Positions 23,184-62,284 of a stretch of 64,000 nt of DNA are shown piece by piece; position 1 is the first letter of the stretch, and every line of letters starts with the position of its first letter. The stretch is from a virus: IMG/VR virus record IMGVR_UViG_3300043772_003377, positions 40,514-104,513 of that record; one strand, written 5' to 3'. The notes under the pieces are model-generated. The model searched no databases. It was given only the letters and a program-made list of their open reading frames with translations, and was not told where the DNA came from. The position numbers and the translations under genes were made by a program.

Positions 23184-23207
23184 ATTTTATTTTATTTTAT
23201 TTTATTG

Positions 23208-24598: not shown

Positions 24599-24599
24599 A

Positions 24600-25789: not shown

Positions 25790-25800
25790 AATAAATTTAA

Positions 25801-26340
25801 TTATTTTTTAATTCCCCAAAAATACAAATCACAATCAATAGGATTAAACGTAAATTCATATTTGGAGAATATGTTATCAGGATTAATAACGTCTCTTATA
25901 TCTTCTTCTGTTAAATTTTTATAATAATTTCCCCATTCATCTAACCCATTAAGTAATGGGGCGTCTTGAGGTTTGGTTCTTCTAGTTCCGTGTTCTGGTC
26001 GACCTGTAGACGCACAGGTAAACGTGAATAATCCCCCTGATTTAGTTAATAATATGGCATTTTTAATTGTTTCAGAATAAAACATATCGTGTTCAAAACA
26101 TTCTGAACTAATTACGATATCGAACAAAACTTCACTTCTGTATTCGTGACCTTTACTAACAATGTCTACATTTGGTCCTTTACCAACATCTACTCCAACA
26201 TAAGTATATTCATCGAATAAAAATCGGTTATTACCATTAATATCTAAAGATCCTATATCTAATACCGAACAATTGATGAATTTTTCGGGAAATAATTTTT
26301 TAACATTAATGAAAAAATTTTTTTGTGCCAGATGAGCCAT
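25801..26340 (-). CDS. SAM-dependent methyltransferase
   Basis: VLDIGSLDING, FDIVISSECFEHD, KSGGL. Confidence 0.85.
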   Translation of the reverse strand: MAHLAQKNFFINVKKLFPEKFINCSVLDIGSLDINGNNRFLFDEYTYVGVDVGKGPNVDIVSKGHEYRSEVLFDIVISSECFEHDMFYSETIKNAILLTKSGGLFTFTCASTGRPEHGTRRTKPQDAPLLNGLDEWGNYYKNLTEEDIRDVINPDNIFSKYEFTFNPIDCDLYFWGIKK

Positions 26341-31537: not shown

Positions 31538-34369
31538 ATGTCAAATCAAAATATTAATCATTGGGCTAACTCAAAATGGTTTCCTAAGTTGTCTTTGGGG
31601 TCTTACGATATGTCATTAACTACTGACGAGACTGAATTTAATCAGGAAGTAGTGTTTTCGCCATATCTAATATCTCAAACATATGGTAATAAATTACCTT
31701 TTTATTTTGATTTAAATAATTCAGGTACTACTCAAAACATTGTTTTAAATTACAAAGAATATAATGCAGATAACATAATAGTTTCTCAGAACTATTATAA
31801 TCCTAATAATGAAAACCTTAGTTGTTTTACTTCATCAACATCTTGTGATATTGGATTAACAGGTACAGATAATGGACTCGTAAATAAAATGACAGGAGAG
31901 ACCATAACATTTACAAATGGATTATTAAGCAATAGTTCAAAATTTGATAGATTACATTTTGATAGAAGATTAAAATTATTTCAAGTTACGGGTTACACTC
32001 AATCACCTAATGTTAAATTTTCAGGTATACAAAACACGACCCTATATGAGGTTGTTAGTAAAGAAGATTCATCATTTGGGAAATATCACGAATTGTATGG
32101 AGGATTTTACCAAGGATTTTATAAATTATTTGGTTATGATTATGAAATTTTTCCTGAGAGATTTAATAAGGGATGGTCAGTTGAGATGTTAATGAGGCCT
32201 AGATTATATGATGAATATAGTCCTGGTTTGGGTGAAACAACATTAAATCAAATATACCCTAATAACAAAAATATATTCTTTTATTTTGGTACTAGATCCG
32301 AAAACAAATATTACCATCATGCGGATGGAACACCAAATTGTTTTACAGGATATACCAGAGTTACATCGGATTTAACGGGGGTAACCACTTGTTCTTGTTG
32401 TAATGAAAATATTACAAATAGTAGGTGTATCTTTATATATCCCCCACGATCAGTTAATGGGGTTCACGACCCTCACGTAAATTACGGGTGTAGTAGTTGT
32501 AATGGTGATAAAAATGTTAGCGTTACCTGTGGATGTAATTGTTATAAAACAGAATGTGAAACTTGTGGTTGGGAATGTCAAACACATAAATGCGACACAA
32601 TTATAACCGCATCAACGACTACCACAACAACCACAATAATTGATGATTGTACAATCACTACCACTTGTAGTGAAATTTGTCAAACTTGCTCTGATTGTTC
32701 AGATTGTGACACTTGCGAAGAGACTTTCGATTCAATAGAGGATACTTGTGAGAAAAACCCATTATATGATGGAATGTCAAATGCGTTTGCGTTAAAACTT
32801 TGCGGAGACCCAAAAAACCCTCAAATAGGTGTTAGATTTTTAAGATTTACCGGTGATTGTGTTACGACAGGGACTTGTGAAACAGGTAACACATATAGTA
32901 CAGGATATACAATAACAGAATATTGTACACCACCAATTTACTCAAGATGTCAAAAAGAAAACCCGTCTTGGTTAGATATTGAACATTGGTTTCAGGTTAA
33001 TGTTGTTTGGGAACGATATACATTTTTAGATGAATGTGATTTAAAATATAGAGGAGGTTTATCAGACATAACCAAAAAAATATTTTTAGAATCTTTAGCG
33101 AATAACACGGCCTCGTTAATTACCACTCCTTATACTAACGGTAAAAAAACAGCGTTACAGATGGAGTTAGTTAATTTAAATGAAAAATGGTTATTAGATG
33201 GTAAATTTAGAAAAGGTAGATTAAAAATCTATGTTAACGGTAAATTACACGATACTATTGAGGATTTTGAGGAGATAATTCCAAGGGCGTTAAATACCGA
33301 CAAGGAAAGACAAATTGGAGTTCCGTTTAATATTTCTTGGGGTGGGGGAACTCAAGGACTTAGAGACCACTTAGTTTTTAGTTCATCAACTCAATTAGAA
33401 GGACCATATATACAAGACCCCGAATTATTTCCTACAAATGTATTGTCAGGAACAACTTTTAGTGGTTTAAACACTAACATACAAATAGAACAAAATTTTG
33501 CAGGAACTTTTGAGGGCGGGATTTCTCAGTTTAGAATGTACATAGAACCTTTAAGTGCTCCTGAAGTAAAACATAATTTCAAAATTTTAAAGGATCAGTT
33601 CATTATGTTTGACCCTGATTGTCCTAATTGTAATACGACATTTTGTGAGCCTAATGATTTCGAATACGATATTTTAACTACCACAACAACAAGTATGGAA
33701 TTATTCCAAGACTTGGGATTTGGATTGGGTAGGGAATTAAAAATTGATAAAAGGGATTTAAATTATTTAATTGAGAATAAAATTAATTTACCGAAAACTT
33801 TATTAACTGAAAAGTATTGGGATGCCGATGGATGGTGGGGTAATCAAAAAAATACACCTCATTGTGTCGGATTTTCTTGGGCTCATTGGATTGATGACGG
33901 ACCAATAAAACACGTGGGTCTCAAACCAAATACTGACCCTGTTTTAATTTATCGAAATGCTCAAAAATTAGATGAATGGCCGGGAGAAAATTATAATGGA
34001 ACTTCAGTTAGAGGAGGAGCTAAATACTTAAAAAGTGTTGGAAAAATAAAATCATATTTATGGACTTTCAATATAAACACTTTAATACAAACATTATTAA
34101 CTCAAGGACCTGTTGTGGTTGGAACAAATTGGTATACGGGAATGTTTTATCCGAATAAAGACGGATTAATAAAATTAAGTGGTAGAGTTGCCGGTGGACA
34201 TGCTTACGTATTAAATGGTGTTAACACTAAAAAACAACAATTTAGAATAAAAAATAGTTGGGGGAAATCTTGGGGATTATCAGGACACGCTTTTATAAGT
34301 TTTTCTGATATGCAAAGATTAATAAAAGAAAATGGTGAAATTTGTTTAGCGGTTGAGAATAATTTTTAA
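31538..34369 (+). CDS. Cys-rich structural protein fused to a papain-like (C1) cysteine peptidase
   Basis: LamG-like segments (LKIYVNG, GGISQFRMY); Cys clusters; C-terminal NQKNTPHCVGF, GGHAY and IKNSWG motifs. Confidence 0.8.
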   Translation: MSNQNINHWANSKWFPKLSLGSYDMSLTTDETEFNQEVVFSPYLISQTYGNKLPFYFDLNNSGTTQNIVLNYKEYNADNIIVSQNYYNPNNENLSCFTSSTSCDIGLTGTDNGLVNKMTGETITFTNGLLSNSSKFDRLHFDRRLKLFQVTGYTQSPNVKFSGIQNTTLYEVVSKEDSSFGKYHELYGGFYQGFYKLFGYDYEIFPERFNKGWSVEMLMRPRLYDEYSPGLGETTLNQIYPNNKNIFFYFGTRSENKYYHHADGTPNCFTGYTRVTSDLTGVTTCSCCNENITNSRCIFIYPPRSVNGVHDPHVNYGCSSCNGDKNVSVTCGCNCYKTECETCGWECQTHKCDTIITASTTTTTTTIIDDCTITTTCSEICQTCSDCSDCDTCEETFDSIEDTCEKNPLYDGMSNAFALKLCGDPKNPQIGVRFLRFTGDCVTTGTCETGNTYSTGYTITEYCTPPIYSRCQKENPSWLDIEHWFQVNVVWERYTFLDECDLKYRGGLSDITKKIFLESLANNTASLITTPYTNGKKTALQMELVNLNEKWLLDGKFRKGRLKIYVNGKLHDTIEDFEEIIPRALNTDKERQIGVPFNISWGGGTQGLRDHLVFSSSTQLEGPYIQDPELFPTNVLSGTTFSGLNTNIQIEQNFAGTFEGGISQFRMYIEPLSAPEVKHNFKILKDQFIMFDPDCPNCNTTFCEPNDFEYDILTTTTTSMELFQDLGFGLGRELKIDKRDLNYLIENKINLPKTLLTEKYWDADGWWGNQKNTPHCVGFSWAHWIDDGPIKHVGLKPNTDPVLIYRNAQKLDEWPGENYNGTSVRGGAKYLKSVGKIKSYLWTFNINTLIQTLLTQGPVVVGTNWYTGMFYPNKDGLIKLSGRVAGGHAYVLNGVNTKKQQFRIKNSWGKSWGLSGHAFISFSDMQRLIKENGEICLAVENNF

Positions 34370-34371
34370 TT

Positions 34372-35295
34372 ATGAGTAATTTTATTGAAATAAAAAGTGT
34401 TAATTATGATGGGGAGGAAGCCAATATTCTTTTCACCCCATATCAAGAATCTAACGTTATAAATTTAGGAATTGTAACTTTACCATTCATATTTGAACCT
34501 GATTTATTAGTTCCGCCAAAAAATATTTACGGAAATTATACGATATTAGTTAAAGGAAGTAATTGTCCTTATATTTTAAATGTTCCGTCGCCGCCACCCA
34601 CTCCAACACCTACTCCAACACCAAGACCAACAAGGACTCCAACTCCCACACCCACCCCAACTCCTACCCCAACCGAAACTTGTCCCACACCAACACCAAC
34701 TCCAACTCCCACACCAACACCAACTCCATTTGTGGAATCGGCATTTTTATTTATTGAACCGGTTTCAGGATCCTCAGCAATTGGTCAATGGATGTATGAT
34801 AATGGTTCCAATTTCTTTGGTTTCACCAACGCGTCTCAGCCGGCTCAAAATCAACCCCAATTTAATATTGATATGAATTTGTACGTTGATTTTGGCGCAT
34901 GGACTTGCGGTCAATTTCCAAAAATTATTAGTCAATTAGTTCCACAAACTACTGGTGGTTTAGATTCTTTTGGTAACTTAAAAGTTGCTTACAATTTTTT
35001 AACAACGGAAGTTCCTGAAAATTATGTGGGTGGAGAAGCTTGGTACACTTGGATAATACCGGTTTCGTTAACAAATAATGAAACACAAACAATGATTGAT
35101 ATAAACACGAATAATAGTCCTAATTTAATGACCGCAGTATCTACTGAAGGTGCAATAAATTCTTACACATTTACTTATTCGGGAACAACAATACCTAAAA
35201 CAACTTATAAAGTTTATACAACTTTCCCTAATACAATTTTCCAAATAAACAATAGTCAGAATATTTATTTCAAAGGTAATACTATATCACCTTAA
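34372..35295 (+). CDS. Structural protein with Pro-Thr linker
   Basis: About 48-aa (PT)n tract between two beta-rich domains. Confidence 0.7.
   Translation: MSNFIEIKSVNYDGEEANILFTPYQESNVINLGIVTLPFIFEPDLLVPPKNIYGNYTILVKGSNCPYILNVPSPPPTPTPTPTPRPTRTPTPTPTPTPTPTETCPTPTPTPTPTPTPTPFVESAFLFIEPVSGSSAIGQWMYDNGSNFFGFTNASQPAQNQPQFNIDMNLYVDFGAWTCGQFPKIISQLVPQTTGGLDSFGNLKVAYNFLTTEVPENYVGGEAWYTWIIPVSLTNNETQTMIDINTNNSPNLMTAVSTEGAINSYTFTYSGTTIPKTTYKVYTTFPNTIFQINNSQNIYFKGNTISP
34584..34728 (+). repeat. (Pro-Thr)n coding low-complexity repeat
   Basis: CCN-ACN hexamer repeats. Confidence 0.9.
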
Positions 35296-35306
35296 TCTAC
35301 CTTAAA

Positions 35307-36293
35307 ATGAGTTTTAATTATAAAAATCCGTTAACCCCCCTAACTGCTTTAGGTAACATAAGTACCAAAAGAGATGACGTATTTGGTACACACTTTAGTA
35401 TTTTATCTACGGGTGGTTATATGGAGGTGTTTAGTCTCGATGATTTAATATATAGTATACCACCATCTACAACAGGTTTAATAAAATTTTCAGGGAATAC
35501 GATACCAATACAATTTAACAAAGGTAGTGGTTCTGTATTTTCACCAGATGTTTTAACTCTTAATTCAGATAATTTTTCTTCAGGTAGAAGAAGAATTGGT
35601 ATGTTGGTTTATGTTAAGGAAGTTGACCAAGTTTACCAATATCAAATACCAAATTTTGATTCGTTATGGTCTTCAGTTACGGGAGCGACAGGACCTGGAG
35701 GGAACACAACAATATTTTCAAATTTTGGAACAACAATCAAAAATAACTCGGTTCAAGGTCAAAATTTTATTAATTCTTGGACAGGTTCAACAATTGAAGG
35801 TATTAGTGGTAATACGAGAAGTAATTCTAATTGGATTAAATATTATGGGACAACGTTAGCGATAACAGGTGGGACATATGATTCGACAACCAACACTCTC
35901 GATTTAGTTAACATAACGGGGGGTTCGATTTCTATATCTGGATTCAGTTCTTTTACTGGTGGTTCGGGTAATTGTGTTACAGAATTGTTTGTAGATGAAA
36001 TAAGTTCTTGTTTAACCGCGATAACAATCAATAACGAATTAATTGTATTAAGTGGTATAACATTAACTGGTAATATAATTCCGTCTTCAGATGGTCAATC
36101 TGATATTGGAAGTCCTATAAAAAGGTTTAGAGATATAAACACAATTAGTGGAACATCGACCATATGGTCGGCAACGACAAAAATTTATACACCCGAAGTT
36201 GACTTAGGTTTAGATAGTTTGGGTAATAGTAGAATAATAACACCAGATAGTTCCGTATTGAATAACGATATTTTATCGGGAGGAACATTTTAA
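35307..36293 (+). CDS. Tail fibre-associated protein
   Basis: RRRIGMLVYV motif; fibre motif DIGSPIKRFRDI; ends ILSGGTF. Confidence 0.65.
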   Translation: MSFNYKNPLTPLTALGNISTKRDDVFGTHFSILSTGGYMEVFSLDDLIYSIPPSTTGLIKFSGNTIPIQFNKGSGSVFSPDVLTLNSDNFSSGRRRIGMLVYVKEVDQVYQYQIPNFDSLWSSVTGATGPGGNTTIFSNFGTTIKNNSVQGQNFINSWTGSTIEGISGNTRSNSNWIKYYGTTLAITGGTYDSTTNTLDLVNITGGSISISGFSSFTGGSGNCVTELFVDEISSCLTAITINNELIVLSGITLTGNIIPSSDGQSDIGSPIKRFRDINTISGTSTIWSATTKIYTPEVDLGLDSLGNSRIITPDSSVLNNDILSGGTF

Positions 36294-36325
36294 AAGTAAA
36301 GATATTTATATAAAAAAACAAAAAA

Positions 36326-37825
36326 ATGGCAAATAGAAGTACAACGTTTTTATTAAAAAACTCAACAACATCAGGAGCGACATTACCCTCAGTATTAAAA
36401 GGTGAACCATTGGTTAACCTATATAATGGTATTATGTATTTTTCGGGTGTTACGGGTGGTGACTTTACTACGGGTAATACGAATACAAGTTATTTTGAGG
36501 TTGGTTCTCATTTAACAAACTTAAAACTGGATGGGCGTATACAAAAATACGATAATACTACGGCTTTAAGTGGTAAGTTCTTGTCGGGTACATCTCAAGG
36601 ATTTGTTTTGGCGGATATTACCCAAATTGGGGGTATTTCAGATTTTGATTATTATCCTTTAACCAATACTTTTGTAATAACCGCGTCAGACTCATCAACG
36701 TATTCGGCAACCGTTACTTCAGTTTCAGGTTTAACCGTAAATGGTGATTTGTCGGTAACTGGAAATACAAATACAAACAATATTTACGTAACGACTTCAG
36801 CGATTACAAATAATCTATCAATTACAGGAACAGGTTATTATAGTCAAACCGCAACGGGTGCGAGCTCAAACGAACTCGTTAATTACGGTACTTTAACAGG
36901 ATTTTCACAAACGAATGATGTTTATGTTACAGGTTCTACTTTAACTCCGGCGGATAATAATACTAACACACAATCATCTCAATTATTATATCACGGAACT
37001 CCTATCGGTGGACCATATACAATAGATACTGAAAACACTTATACCACAGGAGGTACTTATTCGGCGGGAACTATAACGTTCACAAAAAACGACTCAACAA
37101 CCTATCAAGTAACAGGAATTGATGGTACTGATACATATGTGACAGGATTTACGTATAATCCGTCAAACAATACTTTAACTATTTCCAGAAATGAAGGTGA
37201 ACCTGATTTAACCGCGTATATAGATTCTGTATCGGGTTTAACAATAAATGGTAATTTAAATGTAACAGGAACAACAACTACAGGAACTATTAGTGCGACA
37301 ACTTATGACACTAACTTAACACCTGGTACCGTTGTATATGTTAATGGGTCAGGTGAATTGACGAGTGAAAATGAGTTTAGTTATAATGATGGTACAAAAA
37401 CTCTAACCGTTGATAATATTTTAGCGAATCAGAATGTTATAATTAATGGTGATTTAACGGTATTTGGTGCTGCGATATCCGCGTTCACGACAAACCTATA
37501 TGTTGAAGATAAAAATATTACTCTAAACTATAATCCAACAGGTAGTACGTCAGCAACTTCAGTAAATGCGGGATTCACAATACAAGACGGAAATGGAACT
37601 GGTGGTGGTGATGTTAATTTTGATATTATTAGATTACAAAATCTATCCGGAGTTACGGTTGGTGAATATACTTCCGACACAGGTTATACTAATAGAGGCT
37701 GGATTACCCAATTAAATGACATTGTAATTAGAAGTACAGATGTTGTTGATGAGGGAGGTGCTAACTCAGTAACAGGTGTTAGAGTCTTATGTGAACGGGA
37801 TATTTTAGATGGAGGTTCTTATTGA
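36326..37825 (+). CDS. Tail fibre protein
   Basis: Mtd_N-like start (FLLKNS..GEPLVN..G); LTVNGDLSVTG repeats; VEDKNITLN; ends ILDGGSY. Confidence 0.7.
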   Translation: MANRSTTFLLKNSTTSGATLPSVLKGEPLVNLYNGIMYFSGVTGGDFTTGNTNTSYFEVGSHLTNLKLDGRIQKYDNTTALSGKFLSGTSQGFVLADITQIGGISDFDYYPLTNTFVITASDSSTYSATVTSVSGLTVNGDLSVTGNTNTNNIYVTTSAITNNLSITGTGYYSQTATGASSNELVNYGTLTGFSQTNDVYVTGSTLTPADNNTNTQSSQLLYHGTPIGGPYTIDTENTYTTGGTYSAGTITFTKNDSTTYQVTGIDGTDTYVTGFTYNPSNNTLTISRNEGEPDLTAYIDSVSGLTINGNLNVTGTTTTGTISATTYDTNLTPGTVVYVNGSGELTSENEFSYNDGTKTLTVDNILANQNVIINGDLTVFGAAISAFTTNLYVEDKNITLNYNPTGSTSATSVNAGFTIQDGNGTGGGDVNFDIIRLQNLSGVTVGEYTSDTGYTNRGWITQLNDIVIRSTDVVDEGGANSVTGVRVLCERDILDGGSY

Positions 37826-37850
37826 GTTTAATATCTCAAAATAATAAATT

Positions 37851-37878
37851 AAAAGGAAGGTTTTACCTTCCTTTTTTT
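37851..37878 (+). terminator. Rho-independent terminator
   Basis: AAAAGGAAGGT-ttt-ACCTTCCTTTTTTT. Confidence 0.8.
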
Positions 37879-37937
37879 GTTTATATTATATTTATAAATT
37901 GAGGTTATATAATCTTATAAATTTATAGGTCATATAT

Positions 37938-40900
37938 ATGGCAAATCGAAATTCAACGTTTTTATTAAAACGTTCAAATATTATTGATAAAGTCCCAAAT
38001 CTTACGGGACTCACAATTGGGGAATTGGCTCTAAACACGGCAGATTCAAAGTTATATACAATTTTTACATCAGGAACAACAGGTGCTACAGAAGTTAGAC
38101 AAATTGGTTGGGATAGAGTTAGTAGAACTGGTGATACAATCACAGGTGATTTATATGTAACAGGAAAAACAATAACAAATCAACTACAAGTAACGGGAGG
38201 AACATTAACTTCAGGTTATGTTTTAACTTCAGATGGTGTTGGAAACGCTACTTGGGTTTCTCCAACAATTGTTTCCGGTTATTATCTACCTCTGTCAGGT
38301 GGTACCGTAACAGGTGGAACTAGTTTTAATAGTGGTCTAACGGCAAATACAATTTATACGGATTATATTGATTTTAATACAAATCCAACCGTACCTTCTC
38401 CAACAGGAGGAACACTTTATTTTGATTCAAATGAAAACGCTTTATCATACAAACCATTAACAAATCAAAATGATGTTACGGTTAATTTAGGTCAAGAATC
38501 GTTAATTAAAATTTACAATAATTTAGGATATCAAATTAATAATGGTCAAGTTTTACATATAACAGGTGCAACTGGTGGGGTACCAACGGTTGCGTTAGCG
38601 AACGCTTCAAAATTGGGGACAACATTTACTGAAAGTATCGCTCAAACTTCGGGTGTTGCGACTCACGACATACCGACAGGGGAATTTGGTTTTATGACAA
38701 ACTTTGGTATTGTTAGGGATTTAAACACAACCGCGTTTACCGTAGGTCAAGAAGTTTTTTTGTCAGACACTATTGATGGTGCCTTAACCAATGACCCAAA
38801 TAATATTGCCTTCACATCAAGGATATCGACCGTTGGATATTGTATCGAATCTGACCCAACTAATGGAAAGATACTTGTTGTAATAACAAATGAAAATGCG
38901 TTACAAAGTTTAACTCAACAAGAAATAAATGTTTTATTAGGTAATACGATTTCAACCGGTGCGTATTTTTATACGGGAGCAACAACTGCGTCAACAACAA
39001 CAATAAATGTATCACCAGTTAGAGGGTGGATAGTTTATAACACAGGAAGTCAGTACGCGACAAATCCTTTAGTTCTTAATGTTTATTATAGTGGTGGTAC
39101 AAATTTACCAGTTACGGGTTTAACTAGTTCATCCGACACTTATTTATTAGTTAATAGTGGCGGTACTTTATATCAAACAAACACATTCCCATCACCAGAG
39201 GAGAGAAGATATAATATATTTTTAGGTAGGGTAGTTCATCCAAACAAAACAACAATACTAAATGTTGAACAATCTGTGGATTATGATGTTTCCCCATTAT
39301 CATCTCTTAGAGATTTATGGGTTCCGATTAAAATAATAAATGAAGGTGTGGTGCCAAGTCCTAATGGTGCTACTTTAACATTTAAAACTTCATCCGGTAC
39401 TTTTTGGGGTAATGGGATAGGTTTCCCAACAAATGAACTTAATCCAAATTCAATCACCGTACCCGCTTATATTCCGGCGTCTTTTTATTATACAACACAA
39501 ACAGGTGGAACTTTTACCGCAACCACGACAACCGTTGATTCTGAAAATTATGACGTTGGTGGTGTTATAACTAATATACCCGGAGCCGGAAATTACTCGA
39601 CTCAAAGAATTTATATGTCACAAAGTGGTGTGATTAGACTTCAGTATGGTCAAAATTATTATTCCACTTTAGCGAAAGCAATTGCAGCAATACCAAGTGA
39701 GACATTTATTGTTAATCCCGATAATTCATTGGATTGTACTTTAATTGGTTTATTGACCGTTAAAGATGGTACATCAGATTTGAGTAATGCTGATGACGCA
39801 ATTTTTACATTTGTGTCTAAGTTCGGTGAAATTTTAGGTGGTACCGGAGGGATTTCAACCACAACATTACAACAGGCTTATGATAATTCGATTAACCCCG
39901 AAATTGTTACAAATACCACTTTAGGTGGAGTTCAATTTAAAGGGGGTACTGGAAATAATACCGATAAAAATATTATCATTGAAAATAATAGTAGTGTTGA
40001 AACGGGTTATTGGAACGCCGACGGTTCATTGTTCGCTTCGACAATAACTGGGGGTACAACAACAATTAATGGTAATTTAACCGTAACGGGAAATACAAGT
40101 TTACAATCGTTAACTGCGGGGACTAGTACTATAAATGGTAATTTAACCGTAACGGGAAATACAAGTTTACAATCGTTAACTGCGGGGACTAGTACTATAA
40201 ATGGTAATTTAACCGTAACGGGAAATACAAGTTTACAAGGGTTGACCGCGACAACAATTTCGGCAACAACTTACCAAAATTTACCAACTGATATTAGAGT
40301 TACAGGAGCTAGTTATTCGAACAACACGTTCACATATACTAACAATACGGGAGGAACTTTTTCAGTATTATTCAATACCTTAACGGGTTTAACCGTGAAT
40401 GGTAATTTAACCGTAACGGGAAATACGAGTTTACAATCATTAACCGCAGGAACTAGTACCATAAATGGTAATCTATCGGTAACAGGTAATACGTCAATGA
40501 CGGGTACGTTAAGTGTTACGGGTAATACAAATATTAGGTCATTTACAGGAACGAGTGGTTATATATCGGGTAGTGGACAAAATATTTTAACCGTAATTGG
40601 TTCGGGTAATAGTACGACATCACCATTATTTACTGTACAAGGTTCATCGGGTGAATTGTTTAGTGTTACAGATTCATTAACGGGTTCTTTATTTAGTGTT
40701 AATGATATTTCGGGTTTACCAATATTAGAAGTCTTTTCTGATAATAGAATATTACAAGGAAGTTATTTAGCACCATCACTTAATACAACGGTCAGAACAT
40801 CATTAACCGCTGGAACTAATAGTGTTTACTCAATTCCGACAAGTGCTTATACGGGAGCATTTTTCGATTACACCTTAATAAGTACTGGTAGTACGGGTGC

Positions 40901-41087
40901 AAGAGCTGGAACGATTATGTCAATATGGAGTGGTTCAACCACACAATATACTGATGTTTCAACGAATGATATTGGAACAACAACTGGGGTCACATTCTCA
41001 GTCGCGGTCTCAGGTAGTAACGCAGTTCTAAGTAGTTCTGCAACAACAACGGGATGGACATTAAAAACAATTGTTAGGTCAATATGA
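37938..41087 (+). CDS. Long tail fibre protein
   Basis: Mtd_N-like FLLKRS..VP..L..GELALNTADSKLY; 22-aa repeats; C-terminal GAFFDYTL..RAGTIMSIW domain. Confidence 0.75.
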   Translation: MANRNSTFLLKRSNIIDKVPNLTGLTIGELALNTADSKLYTIFTSGTTGATEVRQIGWDRVSRTGDTITGDLYVTGKTITNQLQVTGGTLTSGYVLTSDGVGNATWVSPTIVSGYYLPLSGGTVTGGTSFNSGLTANTIYTDYIDFNTNPTVPSPTGGTLYFDSNENALSYKPLTNQNDVTVNLGQESLIKIYNNLGYQINNGQVLHITGATGGVPTVALANASKLGTTFTESIAQTSGVATHDIPTGEFGFMTNFGIVRDLNTTAFTVGQEVFLSDTIDGALTNDPNNIAFTSRISTVGYCIESDPTNGKILVVITNENALQSLTQQEINVLLGNTISTGAYFYTGATTASTTTINVSPVRGWIVYNTGSQYATNPLVLNVYYSGGTNLPVTGLTSSSDTYLLVNSGGTLYQTNTFPSPEERRYNIFLGRVVHPNKTTILNVEQSVDYDVSPLSSLRDLWVPIKIINEGVVPSPNGATLTFKTSSGTFWGNGIGFPTNELNPNSITVPAYIPASFYYTTQTGGTFTATTTTVDSENYDVGGVITNIPGAGNYSTQRIYMSQSGVIRLQYGQNYYSTLAKAIAAIPSETFIVNPDNSLDCTLIGLLTVKDGTSDLSNADDAIFTFVSKFGEILGGTGGISTTTLQQAYDNSINPEIVTNTTLGGVQFKGGTGNNTDKNIIIENNSSVETGYWNADGSLFASTITGGTTTINGNLTVTGNTSLQSLTAGTSTINGNLTVTGNTSLQSLTAGTSTINGNLTVTGNTSLQGLTATTISATTYQNLPTDIRVTGASYSNNTFTYTNNTGGTFSVLFNTLTGLTVNGNLTVTGNTSLQSLTAGTSTINGNLSVTGNTSMTGTLSVTGNTNIRSFTGTSGYISGSGQNILTVIGSGNSTTSPLFTVQGSSGELFSVTDSLTGSLFSVNDISGLPILEVFSDNRILQGSYLAPSLNTTVRTSLTAGTNSVYSIPTSAYTGAFFDYTLISTGSTGARAGTIMSIWSGSTTQYTDVSTNDIGTTTGVTFSVAVSGSNAVLSSSATTTGWTLKTIVRSI
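40068..40238 (+). repeat. Perfect 66-bp tandem repeat (about 2.6 copies; diverged copy near 40398-40472)
   Basis: Units start at 40068, 40134 and 40200 and encode NGNLTVTGNTSLQSLTAGTSTI. Confidence 0.9.
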
Positions 41088-41770
41088 GTTATAATTTTTC
41101 CCCTAAAATAGTTACCGATGGTCTTGTCTTTTATTTGGATGCTGCGAATACCAAATCATATATTGGTTCAGGTACAACTTGGACAGATTTAAGTAGAGGT
41201 GATAATAGTGGGATTTTAAATGGGGCGGTCTTTAATAGTTTAAATGGTGGTAGTATATCTTTTGATGGTGTTGATGATAATGTAAATTGTGGAAATAATT
41301 CCGCGTTGGACGTTGGAAACAATATTACGGTAAATGCTTGGATTTTTTTACCTAGTGCGGGAGCAATTACAGGTTATAGACCAATAGTGTCCAAAGTTGT
41401 TAGTGGAGCGACATTGGGTTGGGAGATGGGAAATAGTGCGGGAACTCTTAGGTGTGTATTCAGACCAACATCAAGTATTATAGACCTTTCAGGACCAACA
41501 TTATCTATAGGTGTTTGGCAGATGTGTACATTTACTTATAATAATGTAACCGCTAGATTATATTTAAACGGGGTTTTAGGGGCGTCGACATCAAGTGGAG
41601 GTCCTGTAACATTAAACTCAACACAACCACTTCAGGTTGCGACAAGAGGTATTGGCGGTAGTACATTTTTTGGTAGAATATCGATGGTTTCAGTATATAA
41701 TCGAGCTTTATCTACTACAGAAATATTACAAAACTACAACGCGAATAAATCAAGATTTGGATTAAGTTAA
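41084..41770 (+). CDS. LamG/concanavalin A-like domain protein 1
   Basis: DGLVFYLDAAN..SY..WTDLS; FDGVDD; LYLNG; VYNRALS..EILQNYNA. Confidence 0.85.
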   Translation: MSYNFSPKIVTDGLVFYLDAANTKSYIGSGTTWTDLSRGDNSGILNGAVFNSLNGGSISFDGVDDNVNCGNNSALDVGNNITVNAWIFLPSAGAITGYRPIVSKVVSGATLGWEMGNSAGTLRCVFRPTSSIIDLSGPTLSIGVWQMCTFTYNNVTARLYLNGVLGASTSSGGPVTLNSTQPLQVATRGIGGSTFFGRISMVSVYNRALSTTEILQNYNANKSRFGLS

Positions 41771-41771
41771 A

Positions 41772-42467
41772 ATGGCGGGAAGAATATCATATTTAGGTGG
41801 AATCGTAAAGGATGGTCTAGTATTAGATTTAGATGCGGGTAAAATAGATTCTTATCCAAGAACAGGAACTTTATGGAGAGATTTAAGTGGTAATAACAAT
41901 AATGGTACTTTAACAAACTTTGGTTCTCAAACTATATGGAATGGTGATAATGGGGGAAGTATTATTTTTGATGGTAGTAATGATATCGTTTCGGTAAATA
42001 ATGTCGTACCAACTGGGGATAGTTCTAAAAGTGTCTTTATGATTTTTAAATCAACAACTACGATATCAACAAGACAATGGTTATTTTATTCTGGTACCGA
42101 AACTGTTGGTGGTAGATTTGCGTTAGAAATAGAAAATAGTAGGTTTACCTTTAATTATTATAGCGCGGCACTACAACCAACAACACTTATCAGTAATACT
42201 TGGTACTACGGAGGTGTAACATATAACTCAACAACAAAACAATTATTAATATATTTAAATGGTGTATTACAAAGTACTACAACTTTTCCGGTAGCATCAA
42301 TTAGTTTAAACACAGGTAATGGTGCTACAAACTACGTTGGGAATATTTTTAACGCCAGTTTCCCTTTAAACGGGAACATTGCCGTAACACAAGTGTATAA
42401 TAAAGTGTTATCACAATCAGAAGTAACACAAAACTACAACGCATTAAAAGGAAGATATAATTTATAA
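41772..42467 (+). CDS. LamG/concanavalin A-like domain protein 2
   Basis: Same motifs as paralogue 1. Confidence 0.85.
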   Translation: MAGRISYLGGIVKDGLVLDLDAGKIDSYPRTGTLWRDLSGNNNNGTLTNFGSQTIWNGDNGGSIIFDGSNDIVSVNNVVPTGDSSKSVFMIFKSTTTISTRQWLFYSGTETVGGRFALEIENSRFTFNYYSAALQPTTLISNTWYYGGVTYNSTTKQLLIYLNGVLQSTTTFPVASISLNTGNGATNYVGNIFNASFPLNGNIAVTQVYNKVLSQSEVTQNYNALKGRYNL

Positions 42468-42470
42468 AAT

Positions 42471-42740
42471 ATGGAAACACAATTATACGAAAACAGAAAA
42501 TTTATGATATTTGATGTTAGTGAACTACCAAATATTGATTTCACTCAAGTATGTGAAACTTCAATTGATACGGTTAGAAAATCGGTTGACGGAACAAAAA
42601 CATTTGTTAAATGGGATACTGAAGGAATTCCTTCATCAGTAGATAGTTTAACAACTAAAGAAGGTCCATACAACTATGAAGAGATATTAACAATATTATC
42701 AACCCCAGAATGGACTAATCCAAATCCAATGACAATATGA
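42471..42740 (+). CDS. Small acidic protein accompanying the LamG genes
   Basis: 89 aa; IDFTQVCETS..VRKSVDGTKTFVKW. Confidence 0.7.
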   Translation: METQLYENRKFMIFDVSELPNIDFTQVCETSIDTVRKSVDGTKTFVKWDTEGIPSSVDSLTTKEGPYNYEEILTILSTPEWTNPNPMTI

Positions 42741-43483
42741 GTACGGTAAATGGTAATTATTATGGTGGAATTGTAAAAGATGGTTTGGTGTTATTGTTGG
42801 ATGCCGCCAAGAGAGATTCTTATCCTAGAGTCGGTACTACCTGGACTGATATTACTTGGAATGGAAATAATGGTACTTTAACAAACTTTGGTTCTCAAAC
42901 GATATGGAATGGTGATAATGGAGGTAGTATTATTTTTGACGGAACTAATGATTATCTTATAAACACTTCACTTCCAACATTTAATGTTGGTTCTATTAAT
43001 ATATGGTTTAAACCAACCACCACAATAAATGCTAGTTCTCCCGTTTCAACATTAATACAATTAAGGTACGGGACATCGATAGGAAGTGGATGGTATATAC
43101 AATTTGGACCTGCAACTTCATTATTAACCAACGAATATTTAACAATAATCGACTTAGTATCCGGTCGTAGACAAGGGTTAACCACAGTAGGCGGTTCTTT
43201 TTTAGCGAATACTTGGTATAACTTGGTTTTCAATTATGAAAGTACTCAATATCAAATATATGTGAATAGTGTTTTAAACACATCCACATCGTCACCTAGT
43301 GGTGTTGGTTTATTGACCAACCCAAATAGATTATTGATAGGAGCGGGTAGTGGTGAGGGTATAGTAAACCCATTTGACTTTCTTAACGGAAACGTCTCAA
43401 TCGTACAGATTTATAATAGAACTCTTTCCACATCTGAAATAACTCAAAACTATAACGCTCAAAAAGGTCGTTTTGGTTTATAA
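42737..43483 (+). CDS. LamG/concanavalin A-like domain protein 3
   Basis: Same motifs; shares NNGTLTNFGSQTIWNGDNGGSIIFDG with paralogue 2. Confidence 0.85.
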   Translation: MSTVNGNYYGGIVKDGLVLLLDAAKRDSYPRVGTTWTDITWNGNNGTLTNFGSQTIWNGDNGGSIIFDGTNDYLINTSLPTFNVGSINIWFKPTTTINASSPVSTLIQLRYGTSIGSGWYIQFGPATSLLTNEYLTIIDLVSGRRQGLTTVGGSFLANTWYNLVFNYESTQYQIYVNSVLNTSTSSPSGVGLLTNPNRLLIGAGSGEGIVNPFDFLNGNVSIVQIYNRTLSTSEITQNYNAQKGRFGL

Positions 43484-43518
43484 CATTTCACAAATTCAAC
43501 ATATTTATAATAAAATAA

Positions 43519-43542
43519 AATTACTGGATAGGGAAAGTAATT
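43519..43542 (+). promoter_or_regulatory. Leader hairpin abutting the start codon
   Basis: AATTACT-ggatagggaa-AGTAATT directly before ATG 43543 and downstream of TATTTATA at 43502-43509. Confidence 0.5.
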
Positions 43543-43782
43543 ATGCCAAACGAATTTGTAATTAAAAACGGCTACATTAGCCAAGGAAACTCAACGGTCA
43601 ACGCGATATTATCGGCAAATACCGTTTACGTATCATCCACACCAACAAGTGGAATAACATCAACACAAATTTTAATGAGAAATTCATCAACAGGTCTTGT
43701 TGAGATAACGGATAATACTTCTCCTTCCATATTTAATTATGGTTTGTCATACGCGATGGCAAACTTTAATTTTACAACATAA
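43543..43782 (+). CDS. Short fibre-like adaptor protein
   Basis: 79 aa; starts MPNEFVIKNG. Confidence 0.65.
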   Translation: MPNEFVIKNGYISQGNSTVNAILSANTVYVSSTPTSGITSTQILMRNSSTGLVEITDNTSPSIFNYGLSYAMANFNFTT

Positions 43783-43804
43783 TAAAAAATAAAAATTATT
43801 TACT

Positions 43805-44230
43805 ATGCCAGCAAACGTACAACCAATCTATACGAGATTACCTGATGTACAATGGACGGTTTCAGCTATGACTACCGCCAACACAACTAAAGATTTAACG
43901 GGAGGTACAATATACTTAGCGTTTACCGCTGATTCAACTAACGGAAGTTATGTTCAAAGGATAAGATTTAGGCCGTTAGGTACAAACTCAAACGCCACGG
44001 TTGCCAGGGTTTGGATTAATAATGGTTCAGCAACAACTACTGCGTCAAATAATACTTTATTTGACGAGATAACTTTACCAACTATTACCAACATAGAGAC
44101 TGCTGCCCAGTCAAATTATGAATTACCGTTAAATTTTGGTTTAAATCCAGGATATAGGATATACGTAACCGTTGGTACCGCTCCAACATCGGCGGGTTGG
44201 AACGCGACGGTAATTGGTGGTGATTATTAA
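43805..44230 (+). CDS. Putative structural beta-sandwich protein
   Basis: 141 aa; MPANVQPIY...IGGDY. Confidence 0.7.
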   Translation: MPANVQPIYTRLPDVQWTVSAMTTANTTKDLTGGTIYLAFTADSTNGSYVQRIRFRPLGTNSNATVARVWINNGSATTTASNNTLFDEITLPTITNIETAAQSNYELPLNFGLNPGYRIYVTVGTAPTSAGWNATVIGGDY

Positions 44231-44243
44231 AAAAAATTACATT

Positions 44244-44426
44244 ATGATATATAGTTTATGTGAATTTGAATACGGATACGAAGGTCGTTTCTATCAAGAA
44301 AGTGATTATAACGGATTGGTTAGATTTATTGATTTAAGTGGAAATACTTTAGAGTTAATCCCACCATATGGTTATTATGTGATTGAGGATAATTTACCAG
44401 AACCGAACTGGGTTAACAATGGTTGA
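44244..44426 (+). CDS. Small hypothetical protein (start revised to ATG 44244)
   Basis: 60-aa acidic/aromatic ORF between structural genes. Confidence 0.55.
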   Translation: MIYSLCEFEYGYEGRFYQESDYNGLVRFIDLSGNTLELIPPYGYYVIEDNLPEPNWVNNG

Positions 44427-45354
44427 TTATTTTAACATACCACAAATAACCAATTGTCAAACTTTTTTTGCTGCTGGGTCAACATCTTGGCAGACTTGGC
44501 AAAAACCAAAAAACACCAAATTTGTTTATATAACCGCAATTGGTGGTGGTGCTGGTGGTGGAGGTGGTGCAAATACATCTGGAAATGGTGGAGGTGGAGG
44601 AGGTGGTGGTTCATCATCAATTACAAACATACTAATCCCATCAATATTAATTCCTGACACATTATATATTCAAGTTGGGTCAGGTGGTAACGGTGGAACT
44701 TCCGGAGGAAATGGTTCATCGGGACAATTATCCTATGTTTCAATTTTACCTAGTACAGGTGCTACCAATGTTATTATATCATCAGGAACAATTGCCCCTT
44801 CGGGTGGTAATTTAGGTAACCTGTCTGTTGGTGGTACCGGAGGTAGTGGTGGAACCGTATTTACAAGTTCTGTCGGTTTTTTGTCATCGTTAGGAAGATG
44901 GTCATCAACATCGGGAGATACGGGGGCAAATGGTGCTTTTGGATTTGTCGGTGGTGGTACTAAAACCGCATTAACCTCGTTAGTTTTAACTGGTGGTGGA
45001 GGTGGTGGAGGTAAAAGTAACACTAATGGTGGTGCTGGTGGTTCTATTTTAGCAGGTGGAGTTTTAGGTAGAGTCGCTGGTGGAATCGGAGGGACAACGG
45101 GTCAAAATGGAGGTAAAGGTATTATAACTATAAACCCTATTTTATTAACCTATTCTTCGACAGAATTTCCGTTTGCAACTACAGGTGGGTCTGGTGGTGG
45201 AGGAAGAGCTGGTGCTCCCCCAGATGAACCCACATCAAATGGAGGTGATGGTGAAATTGGTAGTGGTGGTGGTGGAGGAGGTTCTTCAAACAGTGGTTCA
45301 GGAAGATTAGGTGGTAGAGGTGGTAACGGAATTGTATTTATAACAACATTTTAA
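44419..45354 (+). CDS. Glycine-rich (polyglycine) adhesin-like protein 1
   Basis: WQTWQKP..VYITAIGGGAGGGGG; many Gly runs; ends GGNGIVFITTF; start revised to ATG 44419. Confidence 0.8.
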   Translation: MVDYFNIPQITNCQTFFAAGSTSWQTWQKPKNTKFVYITAIGGGAGGGGGANTSGNGGGGGGGGSSSITNILIPSILIPDTLYIQVGSGGNGGTSGGNGSSGQLSYVSILPSTGATNVIISSGTIAPSGGNLGNLSVGGTGGSGGTVFTSSVGFLSSLGRWSSTSGDTGANGAFGFVGGGTKTALTSLVLTGGGGGGGKSNTNGGAGGSILAGGVLGRVAGGIGGTTGQNGGKGIITINPILLTYSSTEFPFATTGGSGGGGRAGAPPDEPTSNGGDGEIGSGGGGGGSSNSGSGRLGGRGGNGIVFITTF

Positions 45355-45363
45355 ATTTAACAT

Positions 45364-46317
45364 ATGATAGATATTTTTAACATACCAAACATAACAAATA
45401 CCCAAGTTTTTTACACTCAAGGTTCTGGTATTTGGCAGACTTGGCAAAAACCAAGAAATTGTAAATTCACCTATATTTTTGTATTAGGTGGTGGCGGTGG
45501 TGGAGGTGGAGGAAGAGGTTCTGCCTCTAACGCGGCAATTGGTGGGGGAGGAGGAGCGTCATCTTCATTAACTACGGGAATTTTTCAAACAAACTTATTA
45601 CCCGACACATTATATATCCAAGTCGGTCCTGGTGGTTCTGCGGGTACCGCTGGTTCGGCAACGAATGGTGGTGTTGGAGGTAGTGGTAATTTATCATATG
45701 TTTCAATATTATCAAGTACATCCGCTGCGAATGTTTTATTATCAAGTGGTACTGCAGTACCAACAGGTGGTGGTGGAGGTCTAACAGGTCCTGGTACATC
45801 GAGCGGGGGAACTGTGGGAACAATATTCACAAATTCGGTAGGTATTTTATCATCATTAGGTATGTTTACATCTATTGCCGGTCAAAGTGGTGTTTTAGGT
45901 CAAAATACACAACAGGGTGATAGTATAACAATTGCCGGAGTAACTTCAGGAGGTGCTGGTGGTGGTGGAGCTACAAGTTCATTATCTTCGTTTTCAGGTG
46001 GTTCAATAACAACATCCGGTTTTATACCACAATTAAATGGTGGCGCATTAGGTTTTGTCACAAGTGGTGGAACTGGTAATTCGGGGTTTATTGGTTTAAA
46101 CCCCTCTTCTTTATCAACATCAAGATTGCCTTTCTTAACCACGGGAGGTGCTGGTGGTGGAGGGTCAACAAATAACGCGTCAGGAACTTTTAATGGTGGT
46201 ATTGGGGGTAATGGTGGTTTTGGGTCTGGTGGTGGAGGTGGTGGAGGAGCTTATAATGGAGCTGGTGGTGTTGGTGGAAGAGGTGGTGACGGTTTAGTGA
46301 TAATTACTTGTTGGTAA
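45364..46317 (+). CDS. Glycine-rich adhesin-like protein 2
   Basis: Paralogue of the previous gene (WQTWQKP, PDTLYIQVG, GGRGGDGLVII). Confidence 0.8.
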   Translation: MIDIFNIPNITNTQVFYTQGSGIWQTWQKPRNCKFTYIFVLGGGGGGGGGRGSASNAAIGGGGGASSSLTTGIFQTNLLPDTLYIQVGPGGSAGTAGSATNGGVGGSGNLSYVSILSSTSAANVLLSSGTAVPTGGGGGLTGPGTSSGGTVGTIFTNSVGILSSLGMFTSIAGQSGVLGQNTQQGDSITIAGVTSGGAGGGGATSSLSSFSGGSITTSGFIPQLNGGALGFVTSGGTGNSGFIGLNPSSLSTSRLPFLTTGGAGGGGSTNNASGTFNGGIGGNGGFGSGGGGGGGAYNGAGGVGGRGGDGLVIITCW

Positions 46318-46330
46318 TATATTTATAGTT

Positions 46331-47092
46331 ATGCAAATTATTGAAATAACAAATGCGGTAGGGTCAGGAACGTATGATATTTATTTGTGTGATATAACAT
46401 TAACTTATTGTTTTTTAATATCAGGGTCAACATCAATCCCGCCAACCGTATCTTTTGAGTTACCATCATCTTTACCAAATCCTAATTCTCCTCCTACGAC
46501 AATATCTTTTGATGGGGCGACTTCAGTAATAGTTAAATTGGTCGATTCCGTAACAGGGTGTGAAAAATTTATAGTCCGAAATTGCGGTGACACCCAACCA
46601 TGCTCCTGTTCGTACTCTATGTTGGATAGTGTTGGATATATTGAGGATGTTGTTAATGGATTTGAGTCGGTATCGGCTTTAACATATACATTAACCGGAA
46701 TAACAATCAATTCAAATCCGATAATCCCACTAACATATTCTTCGGAAACTATTAACATCTCAACGGTAAATTGGGTACCGGCAACAACCTTAGACGGTAC
46801 GGTTTATACCAATGTGTATGATTTTGTAAGTAGTATAATTTCAACATATAATTTAACAGGATATTCATCTTCATTGATAACGACTCCAAATTTTATTGGT
46901 TTAGATAGAACCGCGATATCAATAACCTACCCTTGTGGGGATACATTTATTTTTAATATTGTTATTTATGGTAGTCAGGTAGGGACTTCAAATCAATTAT
47001 ATATGGGTGAATATAACTATACTAACAATGGTTATTCATTTTTAACACCAAATATGTATTCAGTCTATCAAGATAGCGAGTGTTTGAGTTAA
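46331..47092 (+). CDS. Putative structural protein
   Basis: Ser/Thr-rich beta-type sequence; late motif at 46320-46327. Confidence 0.6.
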   Translation: MQIIEITNAVGSGTYDIYLCDITLTYCFLISGSTSIPPTVSFELPSSLPNPNSPPTTISFDGATSVIVKLVDSVTGCEKFIVRNCGDTQPCSCSYSMLDSVGYIEDVVNGFESVSALTYTLTGITINSNPIIPLTYSSETINISTVNWVPATTLDGTVYTNVYDFVSSIISTYNLTGYSSSLITTPNFIGLDRTAISITYPCGDTFIFNIVIYGSQVGTSNQLYMGEYNYTNNGYSFLTPNMYSVYQDSECLS

Positions 47093-47388
47093 TAACATAT
47101 AAAAATGGTGTTAGACCTAACAGAGGTAAATTAAATGATTTTTACGATTTACCGATAGAAAAACAAAATATTTTTAAAGAAATTAAAAATAAAGTTAATA
47201 ACGAATTTGGTAATCATATTGATTTATATGTTTTTGGTAGTTACTTAAAGGGTGTCTGGAACGAATCCTCAGATTTTGATGTTGTAACAAGTGAACCAAA
47301 TTTTAAAATAAGAGAATTAAAATTTAAAAACATAAAAGTTGATTTTATTTATTTTAATAATTTTGATGGAATGGTAAAAATCCCTTAA
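47080..47388 (+). CDS. Minimal nucleotidyltransferase (Pol-beta superfamily)
   Basis: LYVFGSYLKGVWNESSDFDVV matches GS-x10-DxD, with later KVD; GTG start uncertain. Confidence 0.75.
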   Translation: MFELITYKNGVRPNRGKLNDFYDLPIEKQNIFKEIKNKVNNEFGNHIDLYVFGSYLKGVWNESSDFDVVTSEPNFKIRELKFKNIKVDFIYFNNFDGMVKIP

Positions 47389-47433
47389 TACTTTATTTGT
47401 AAAGTTTATTTTTTAATTTTAAAATAAAAAAAT

Positions 47434-62284: not shown

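Follow-up and report, generated by a model that had tools for sequence, protein, structure and literature searches.

Two candidate fibre-glycosylation modules, built around GT60 and DUF2827 enzymes, in the fibre locus of an uncultured large phage

To our knowledge, there are very few cases in which phage particles have been shown experimentally to be glycosylated. In the mycobacteriophages Che8 and Rita, as the work of Freeman et al., 2023 is described in PMC11256854, phage transferases modify the phages' own structural proteins in the cytoplasm to produce a glycan coat, and the major capsid proteins are proven targets. In the shown cases the coat alters antibody recognition, which makes it relevant to phage therapy. 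Chloroviruses and the mimivirus likewise encode clade-variable glycosyltransferase (GT) clusters that decorate capsid or fibril proteins (PMC4691112), although these giant viruses infect eukaryotes and use enzymes and targets different from those considered here. Two further enzyme families have been described outside phages. Protist GT60 enzymes start O-glycans as alpha-N-acetylglucosamine (GlcNAc) transferases acting on polypeptide Thr/Ser (in mucin-like domains) or hydroxyproline (in Skp1), and are related to the GT27 mucin initiators (PMC8724618, PMC6939170). In bacteria, 327 DUF2827 genes, often two or three in tandem, are reported next to trimeric autotransporter adhesins in a preprint, which proposes that they glycosylate in the cytoplasm (10.64898/2026.01.22.700529). 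Here we analyse a 64,000-nucleotide stretch of viral DNA (hereafter 'the window'; positions 40,514 to 104,513 of IMG/VR record IMGVR_UViG_3300043772_003377) in which a GT60 gene, a DUF2827 gene and a DUF2827-GT25 fusion lie among fibre-type genes. The best reading of this arrangement, and one that on the sequence evidence we think somewhat likelier to be right than wrong, is that these phage enzymes glycosylate the phage's own fibre-type proteins. Phage virion glycosylation is already known; what would be new is GT60 and DUF2827 in that role, and we found no literature linking either family to phages or to phage virion glycosylation.

The window makes up the final 64 kb of a 104.5-kb virus record whose completeness is estimated at about 33%, which implies a genome of roughly 300 kb and a jumbo phage as the source. 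Complete relatives of 317-321 kb exist, one of them with terminal repeats. Our comparison set comprised about 200 related phage and bacterial loci overall. GT60 homologues were found at 155 or more IMG/VR loci, and we mapped the window's proteins onto 80 of these; the tract counts below cover 56 distinct GT60 loci.

An earlier note on this DNA, made from its letters alone, had pointed to three glycosyltransferase-type genes in the fibre region and had asked for profile and structure searches of their products. These searches matched Pfam PF11397 (GT60), PF10933 (DUF2827) and PF10933 together with PF01755 (DUF2827 plus GT25), all well above the curated thresholds (Table 1), and the DUF2827 structure was predicted to be of the GT-B type. 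The fibre or adhesin setting was confirmed as well, since a PHROG tail fibre, three Laminin_G_3 paralogues and two Gly_rich_2 paralogues surround the enzymes, and the Thr runs, (PT)n tracts and Ser-rich repeats described for the neighbours are present in the products of 31538, 34372, 48725 and 50821 (open reading frames, ORFs, are named by their first coordinate in Table 1). We also examined the hydropathy of the three enzymes. Their maximum Kyte-Doolittle means over 19 residues are 0.88-1.28 and no transmembrane segment is predicted in any of them, so all three are predicted to be soluble, cytoplasmic proteins. To the extent that PMC11256854 describes the mycobacteriophage system, the likeness is that phage transferase genes are placed with structural genes whose products carry tracts, which is seen here in gene position. 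The difference is that the targets here are likely to be fibre linkers and a coiled-coil fibre and that the enzymes are GT60 and DUF2827; our system is known from its genes, and the two are compared by description.

We began the detailed comparison with GT60. The match spans positions 98-349 of the profile plus an N-terminal stretch. Two motifs, DSH at residues 93-95 (a DxH motif) and HGEE at residues 203-206, are invariant in 60 distinct homologues, including those of phages XacN1 and Xoo-sp13, and the DSH would provide the metal-binding DxH/DxD motif typical of GT-A enzymes. PF11397 was the sole domain found, and there is no ricin-type lectin domain, in contrast to GT27; absence of that domain separates GT60 from GT27 (PMC8724618). 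A sequence search of the PDB with this protein returned nothing. By family, the phage GT60 would be a retaining uridine diphosphate (UDP)-GlcNAc:polypeptide alpha-GlcNAc transferase. It is like the protist enzymes of Dictyostelium (Skp1 Gnt1) and T. cruzi in belonging to the same Pfam and CAZy family, in its DxH motif, in lacking a ricin-type domain, in being soluble and in having Thr/Pro-rich tracts nearby. It is unlike them in being a phage enzyme in the bacterial cytoplasm with no linked prolyl hydroxylase found. The Skp1-type arrangement, with a prolyl 4-hydroxylase ahead of GT60, was not seen within the contig, about 33% of the genome: no prolyl hydroxylase (PF13640) was detected in the 104-kb contig, nor in the GT60-bearing genomes G006 and G007. 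The complete relatives G001 and G002 carry three PF13640 genes, all far from GT60. With no prolyl hydroxylase linked to GT60, Thr/Ser is a more likely acceptor than hydroxyproline.

The surroundings of GT60 were then compared across relatives. Gene order is conserved across the mapped loci and runs from a minus-strand block (27692...30746) through the N-terminal 713 residues of 31538, variable fibre-type genes, GT60, variable enzyme-type genes and a 125-residue protein (equivalent to residues 1-137 of 48725) to a family-B DNA polymerase. We defined a tract as a run of at least 6 Ser, Thr or Pro residues (S/T/P) and looked up to 6.5 kb upstream of GT60; 37 of the 56 distinct loci had a usable upstream flank. 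A tract-bearing protein is encoded upstream of GT60 in 34 of these 37 informative loci, and in 26 it is encoded by the adjacent ORF. Counted by ORF, 71 of 131 upstream of GT60 bear tracts versus 7 of 298 downstream, against a background of 20 of 356 in the G001 genome. What lies downstream in most relatives is a hypervariable cassette of 2-9 enzyme genes with phage-specific content. The domains sampled from it include GT25, GT32 (with Caps_synth), GT10 fucosyltransferase, GT34, RXYLT1-like and HtrL_YibB, and the final gene nearly always encodes an HtrL_YibB protein of about 557 residues. An HtrL_YibB gene accompanies GT60 in all 4 loci examined for it (XacN1, L069, L094 and L128), most other relatives have an ORF of about 557 residues at the same position, and the GT60-HtrL pair may be a real conserved core. 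In the 281-kb genome G006, GT60 sits 55 kb from its usual locus but is again found amid PT-tract fibre-type genes with the HtrL gene directly after it. In the window the cassette is absent, and 48725 follows GT60 at once. A different block, 22623-26340, is missing from the complete relative G001, although its flanks (21084-N and 26368 onward) are collinear; we take it to be a further variable glycosylation island, across the conserved block from the first.

Only four cultured phages were found to share GT60, namely XacN1, Xoo-sp13, CM1 and RAS14, all jumbo phages of Xanthomonas or Stenotrophomonas, with 43-47% identity in this protein. XacN1 pairs GT60 with HtrL_YibB. Convergent to this GT60...HtrL cluster lie genes for baseplate hub and wedge proteins, a GT9 enzyme and ORF325, a giant (PT)n protein of 3313 residues with three PT tracts (residues 3088-3157). 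XacN1 differs from the window phage in lineage and in its 49% guanine-plus-cytosine (GC) content, its cluster contains a carbamoyltransferase and GT9, the phage has no DUF2827, and the window GT60 is without HtrL. XacN1 virions yield at least two periodic-acid-Schiff-positive bands, for which the authors suggest the phage's two glycosyltransferases as the cause (PMC5852040).

The second group of enzymes, encoded by 59021 and 60236, belongs to DUF2827. The two DUF2827 copies are 64% identical, and both keep all 28 residues conserved in the family (6 invariant and 22 near-invariant). The second gene starts 3 nt past the first, and one copy of the upstream motif serves the pair. An AlphaFold2 (AF2) model of the 59021 protein is of high quality (predicted local distance difference test score 96.4, predicted template modelling score 0.93) and adopts a GT-B fold. 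Its nearest structural neighbours are retaining GT4 enzymes, led by BshA (Foldseek 6.9e-11; VIA Z 25.1, root-mean-square deviation 3.9, 326 residues aligned) and followed by TarM, HepE, PimA and MshA, and on this model DUF2827 has a GT4-like GT-B glycosyltransferase-type fold. In the fusion protein, PF01755 covers residues 415-596 at 36.8 bits (cut-off 24; 39.4 bits in the genome scan) and includes an LEDD acidic motif; a PDB sequence search with the fusion returned nothing. DUF2827 is often fused to a second enzyme, be it GT9, PLOD-GT, GT32, GT25 or Methyltransf, and the window fusion fits this habit, although the DUF2827-GT25 combination itself was found only in the window and in one near-identical contig. 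The idea that the fusion GT25 is a relocated copy of the cassette GT25 of relatives was considered and rejected: the family motif alone aligns, and the two are not orthologous.

DUF2827 co-occurs with one particular fibre gene. All 7 of the IMG/VR DUF2827 loci have a 50821-like fibre, a 49979-like small gene and the J-domain-like gene 62335. A reverse search starting from the fibre gave the same picture, as every one of the 12 informative 50821-like loci has DUF2827 and the J-like gene at a distance of 0.1-6 kb; at a further fibre locus, L097, neither gene is seen in the 6.4 kb before the contig ends. Co-occurrence of the enzymes with low-complexity proteins had been named beforehand as the test that could refute the glycosylation proposal, and it was found both for GT60 and for DUF2827. 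The J-domain-like gene adjoins DUF2827 in every related phage locus, and its product may assist the folding or glycosylation of the fibre as a co-chaperone. The module varies in position: it may follow 31538 or stand in the interval from 48725 to the polymerase. Beyond these loci, 746 DUF2827 homologues were found at E <= 1e-5 among proteins from public genomes and metagenomes clustered at 90% identity. A search of 50,697 deposited phage genomes gave no match at the DNA or protein level.

The two groups of enzymes can be separated by genome comparison. G001 and G002, the two complete relatives of 317-321 kb, keep GT60 but have no DUF2827 and no Ser-rich fibre, and the J-like gene is also gone. 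G009, a more distant complete 166-kb phage, has the DUF2827 module but not GT60, and none of its proteins has two or more S/T/P tracts. The existence of GT60-only and DUF2827-only genomes indicates two independent modules, each tracking its own kind of low-complexity protein. We refer to them as module A (GT60) and module B (DUF2827).

Next, we asked how module B compares with DUF2827 in bacteria. A genome scan with an 8-sequence DUF2827 subset found 409 loci; the best 80 were inspected, and all 80 are in Burkholderiales-type genomes. In 27 of these 80, an ORF of at least 500 residues within 8 kb carries 3-106 SLST motifs and 12-36% Ser. BoaA and BoaB are known to contain SLST repeats (PMC2955633). 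In both phages and Burkholderiales DUF2827 is found beside a long Ser/Thr-rich fibrous protein, often in tandem. The two settings share PF10933, tandem copies, a cytoplasmic location and a very long, periodic neighbour, and the function is a proposed one there too. They differ in that the phage fibre has no detectable similarity to the SLST proteins and in that the phage module adds a J-domain-like gene. The same logic is familiar from bacterial adhesins. Streptococcal GtfA/GtfB, which act on serine-rich repeat proteins, and the heptosyltransferases TibC and Aah, which act on TibA and AIDA-I, are cytoplasmic transferases that are encoded beside a repetitive Ser-rich surface fibre and modify it before export or assembly. 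In one close relative, DUF2827 is joined to a GT9 heptosyltransferase-like domain. Homology to these systems was, however, seen only at the level of the GT-B/GT9 superfamily, and GtfA and TibC are not among the structural matches listed for DUF2827.

Based on these comparisons, we propose that both modules act in the host cytoplasm on phage fibre-type proteins before assembly. In module A, GT60 would add the first sugar to Thr/Ser residues in the disordered linkers, made of Thr runs or (PT)n, between beta-sandwich domains, in 31538, 34372, 48725 and others. In most relatives, the hypervariable cassette ending in HtrL_YibB would extend this first sugar. The window phage has no such cassette after GT60, so its glycan may stop at one residue or be lengthened by transferases from another locus, such as the 22.6-26.3 kb island. 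In module B, the operon 59021-62284, with three catalytic domains, its own terminator, a promoter-like ATATTTATA motif and the J-domain-like gene alongside, would glycosylate the Ser-rich coiled-coil fibre 50821-55137, as proposed for Burkholderiales DUF2827 beside Ser-rich trimeric adhesins. Possible benefits include linker stiffening, protease protection, shielding and adhesion. A more specific version, to which we give rather less than an even chance, is that large uncultured phages carry two portable fibre-glycosylation kits: a mucin-type kit in which GT60 places GlcNAc on Thr/Pro linkers and a strain-specific coat results, and a kit in which DUF2827 and the J-protein act on the Ser-rich coiled-coil fibre. 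If true, this would be the first function for DUF2827 and would mean that phages and bacteria share a way of glycosylating coiled-coil stalks, which bears on Burkholderia adhesin biology. It would also mean that widespread environmental jumbo phages decorate their fibres with enzymes not earlier linked to phages, and the hypervariable extension cassette would imply diversifying selection on the virion glycan.

Several points weigh against glycosylation of the phage's own fibres. The co-occurrence counts are drawn from kin phages and are not phylogenetically independent. The contrast between G009 and G001, a GT60-bearing genome in which seven proteins have 4 or more tracts each, sets one genome against one; G001 also has (PT)n proteins far from GT60 (at 5, 117, 250 and 305-314 kb), and (PT)n linkers often occur in proteins that are not glycosylated. 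The usual partners of GT60 are missing, in that neither an HtrL_YibB gene nor a second GT25 was found in the 104-kb contig; absence statements for this phage cover that contig, about 33% of its genome. For module B, the Ser residues of 50821 lie in a predicted coiled coil and not in a disordered mucin-like tract. BLASTP of this fibre against the bacterial SLST proteins gave no match at E < 1e-3, so the likeness is one of composition, periodicity and architecture, not of homology. The GT-B fold of DUF2827 fits enzymes with small-molecule, teichoic-acid, lipopolysaccharide (LPS) and even DNA acceptors nearly equally well (Z 20-25), and these near-equal matches make the fold uninformative on the acceptor. 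That the proposed acceptors are virion proteins is suggested by weak PHROG matches, composition and gene position. Finally, the fibre and backbone genes appear to have no cultured relative, so that the clade is known as sequence alone: the backbone proteins 31538-N, 48725-N and 10183 have no match in deposited phage genomes, and a DNA polymerase search matched only distant Salinibacter and Nostoc phages.

We weighed four other explanations. The enzymes could instead remodel the host envelope by altering LPS, capsule or another surface glycan, which could, for example, block superinfection or stop progeny from sticking to debris, and their proximity to fibre genes would then reflect co-evolution with the receptor. 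A further point against our reading is that the cassette and fusion families GT25, GT9, HtrL_YibB and GT32 are named for LPS or lipooligosaccharide core synthesis. In addition, XacN1 ORF328 (GT9) has its best match in the host (PMC5852040), the DUF2827 fold is like those of WaaG, TarM and PimA, and the hypervariable cassettes recall O-antigen loci. We nevertheless consider this explanation unlikely, though a real rival. The first and conserved enzyme belongs to GT60, and the characterised enzymes of this family act on polypeptide acceptors; none of the three enzymes has a transmembrane segment. Domain scans of the window revealed no flippase, polymerase or lipid-carrier transferase, and DUF2827 is present or absent together with one fibre gene, not with the phage backbone.

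The earlier note had combined the three enzymes into one initiating-plus-elongating pathway, in which an O-glycan begun by GT60 is lengthened, on the same proteins, by the DUF2827 pair and its GT25. This part of the proposal did not hold up and now seems distinctly improbable. The modules occur independently (GT60 alone in G001 and G002, DUF2827 alone in G009), and the presence of DUF2827 follows that of the Ser-rich fibre rather than that of GT60 or (PT)n tracts. In relatives, GT60 has its elongating partners in a different, downstream cassette, to whose GT25 the fusion GT25 is not orthologous, and in the window GT60 and DUF2827 are separate transcription units 10 kb apart. What speaks for a linked pathway is that the usual cassette after GT60 is missing here, which leaves the DUF2827 genes as the sole other transferases in the fibre block, and that DUF2827 is frequently fused to elongating-type domains.

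A slightly smaller chance still goes to protein targets outside the virion, that is, host or non-structural phage proteins modified in an effector-like manner, or proteins freed at lysis. Soluble, cytoplasmic enzymes would suit such a role, the GT60 family also modifies the cytoplasmic regulator Skp1, and the virion status of the neighbours is deduced from their genes. The enzymes, however, lie tightly and repeatedly next to genes of fibre type, and do so in three distinct genomic settings; XacN1 virions hold glycoproteins, and no prolyl hydroxylase is linked to GT60 (none was found in the contig, G006 or G007). Glycosylation of DNA bases against restriction, in the style of the T4 alpha- and beta-glucosyltransferases, is highly improbable: jumbo phages often modify their own DNA and DUF2827 aligns with T4 alpha-glucosyltransferase (Z 20-21), but dozens of other GT-B enzymes match at least as well, DUF2827 is accessory, tied to one fibre gene and adjoins adhesin-type genes in bacteria, and GT60 is a GT-A polypeptide transferase family.

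Table 1. Positions of the enzyme genes, fibre-type genes and other features in the window
Position	Strand	Feature	Match or remark
22623-26340	-	Variable island: methyltransferase, two GT2 genes, other ORFs	
31538..34369	+	First gene of variable fibre-type block	N-terminal 713 aa conserved in clade
33695-34369		C-terminus of ORF 31538: papain-like C1 peptidase, aa ~730-940	PF00112; phrog_16701 peptidase 5.1e-56
34372..35295	+	307 aa; three (PT)n tracts of 13-15 residues each	T 15%, P 13%
35307-36293 and 36326-37825	+	Two S/T/G-rich, low-K/E fibre-type ORFs	Assigned by composition
37938..41087	+	1049-aa tail-fibre-like protein	phrog_16641 'tail fiber protein' 8.6e-17
41084, 41772, 42737 (block 41084..43483)	+	Three concanavalin A (ConA)-like lectin (Laminin_G_3) paralogues	PF13385 2.9e-20, 5.4e-11, 1.2e-14; phrog_8510 virion structural protein
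42471	+	Small 89-aa ORF	Within lectin-paralogue block
44383 and 45364 (44383..46317)	+	Two Gly-rich (29% Gly) Gly_rich_2/minor-tail-type paralogues	PF21722; phrog_754, phrog_863
46331..47092	+	253-aa S/T-rich protein	
47080-47388		102-aa minimal nucleotidyltransferase, GTG start	PF01909; directly upstream of GT60, overlaps end of 46331
47434..48684	+	GT60-family glycosyltransferase, 416 aa	PF11397 'GlcNAc', E 3.8e-65, 221 bits (cut-off 21)
48725..49957	+	Modular beta-sandwich protein	Directly after GT60
49979..50464	+	161-aa protein	Always precedes Ser-rich fibre in relatives
50821..55137	+	1438-aa Ser-rich (18.6%) repeat fibre, coiled-coil type	C-terminal non-repeat domain
55155-55173		Terminator	Follows ORF 50821
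55475-57226 and 57292-58935	+	Two paralogous two-domain S/T/G-rich proteins	phrog_17104, phrog_26223
58957-58985		Bidirectional terminator hairpin	Ahead of DUF2827 operon
59021..60232	+	DUF2827	PF10933, full length, E 2.4e-94, 316.6 bits (cut-off 25)
60236..62284	+	DUF2827 (aa 3-369) + GT25 fusion	PF10933 4.8e-93, 312.3 bits (cut-off 25)
62335..62892	-	185-aa J-domain-like protein; HPD at aa 93-95	Pfam DnaJ 2.6e-4, 21.5 bits, below cut-off
Before 2858(+), 5928(-), 11649(-), 15762(-), 31456(-), 36326, 37938, 45364, 46331, 59021, 62892(-)		ATATTTATA, leading upstream word	

The fibre-type block as a whole is low in Lys and Glu and high in Ser, Thr and Gly, and two of its ORFs, 35307 and 36326, have no Pfam or PHROG match. 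ORF 31538 has Thr runs at residues 359 (STTTTTTT) and 714 (TTTTTS). The C1 peptidase is joined behind the TTTTTS linker to the conserved 713-residue N-part, and among the mapped loci this full-length form was seen only in the close relative L013. In other relatives the match ends near residues 700-750, and the few ORFs read there show different PT-rich C-termini.

The tracts of ORF 48725, PTTTTTSTSTTTTTT and (PT)11, coincide with joints in its AF2 model, which consists of three folded beta-sandwich domains connected by a disordered Thr run (residues 148-162) and the (PT)11 linker (residues 275-299). Foldseek matched this model to generic Ig-like strings only. The idea that its N-domain is a BppU_N baseplate anchor came from an Atlas lead with a 13% share and was dropped as unsupported. 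In most relatives this N-domain (residues 1-137) is a free-standing 125-residue gene beside the polymerase. The N-terminal 79 residues of ORF 34372 are conserved in L006, L008, L009 and L011, and at the same four loci the C-domain of 48725 (residues ~300-410) is joined to a 34372-type N-domain, with (PT)n linkers at the joints. The comparisons point to domain shuffling between fibre genes, with (PT)n at the joints.

Immediately upstream of GT60, the N-terminal ~85 residues of ORF 46331 represent the usual neighbour, found in L006, L012, L013, L023, L099, L100, L104 and G006. In L012, whose GT60 is 99% identical, just residues 7-87 of 46331 match ahead of GT60 and the 47080 gene is unmatched. 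This lack of a match to 47080 and most of 46331 suggests that the nucleotidyltransferase region is a recent insertion of ~0.7 kb.

The window has a GC content of ~30% and no tRNA was found in its 64 kb; its gene leaders are A-rich, with no visible Shine-Dalgarno sequence. The earlier note had also claimed that the DUF2827 pair shares an upstream motif with the structural genes. A copy of TATTTATA at 58999-59006 lies between the terminator hairpin, which it closely follows, and the first DUF2827 gene, 15 nt further on. Its raw enrichment in the window is weak (28 copies versus 18.6 +/- 4.2), but TATTTATA/ATATTTAT is the top upstream 8-mer, with 11 of the 28 copies standing in sense orientation no more than 60 nt ahead of a gene, which accounts for 11 of the 59 genes. 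ORFs 31538 and 48725 are preceded by a variant, GTATTTATCATAAAAAAA. The claim stands in so far as the motif precedes 59021 and several fibre-type genes; its specificity does not, since the motif is also found before 2858(+) and before minus-strand genes (Table 1), while TATTTATA is absent before GT60. The TATTTATA/ATATTTATA motif is probably a phage promoter class, not a marker of structural genes.

Downstream of GT60, the Ser-rich fibre encoded by 50821 is built of 29- and 18-residue repeats. PDB sequence searches returned nothing for this fibre and one insignificant match for the 55475 protein. ORF 55475 probably begins at the ATG at 55508 and not at the listed TTG: translation from that ATG gives MPVQVINGVG, identical to the N-terminus of its paralogue 57292. 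The TTG start also overlaps with a predicted hairpin (55453-55488).

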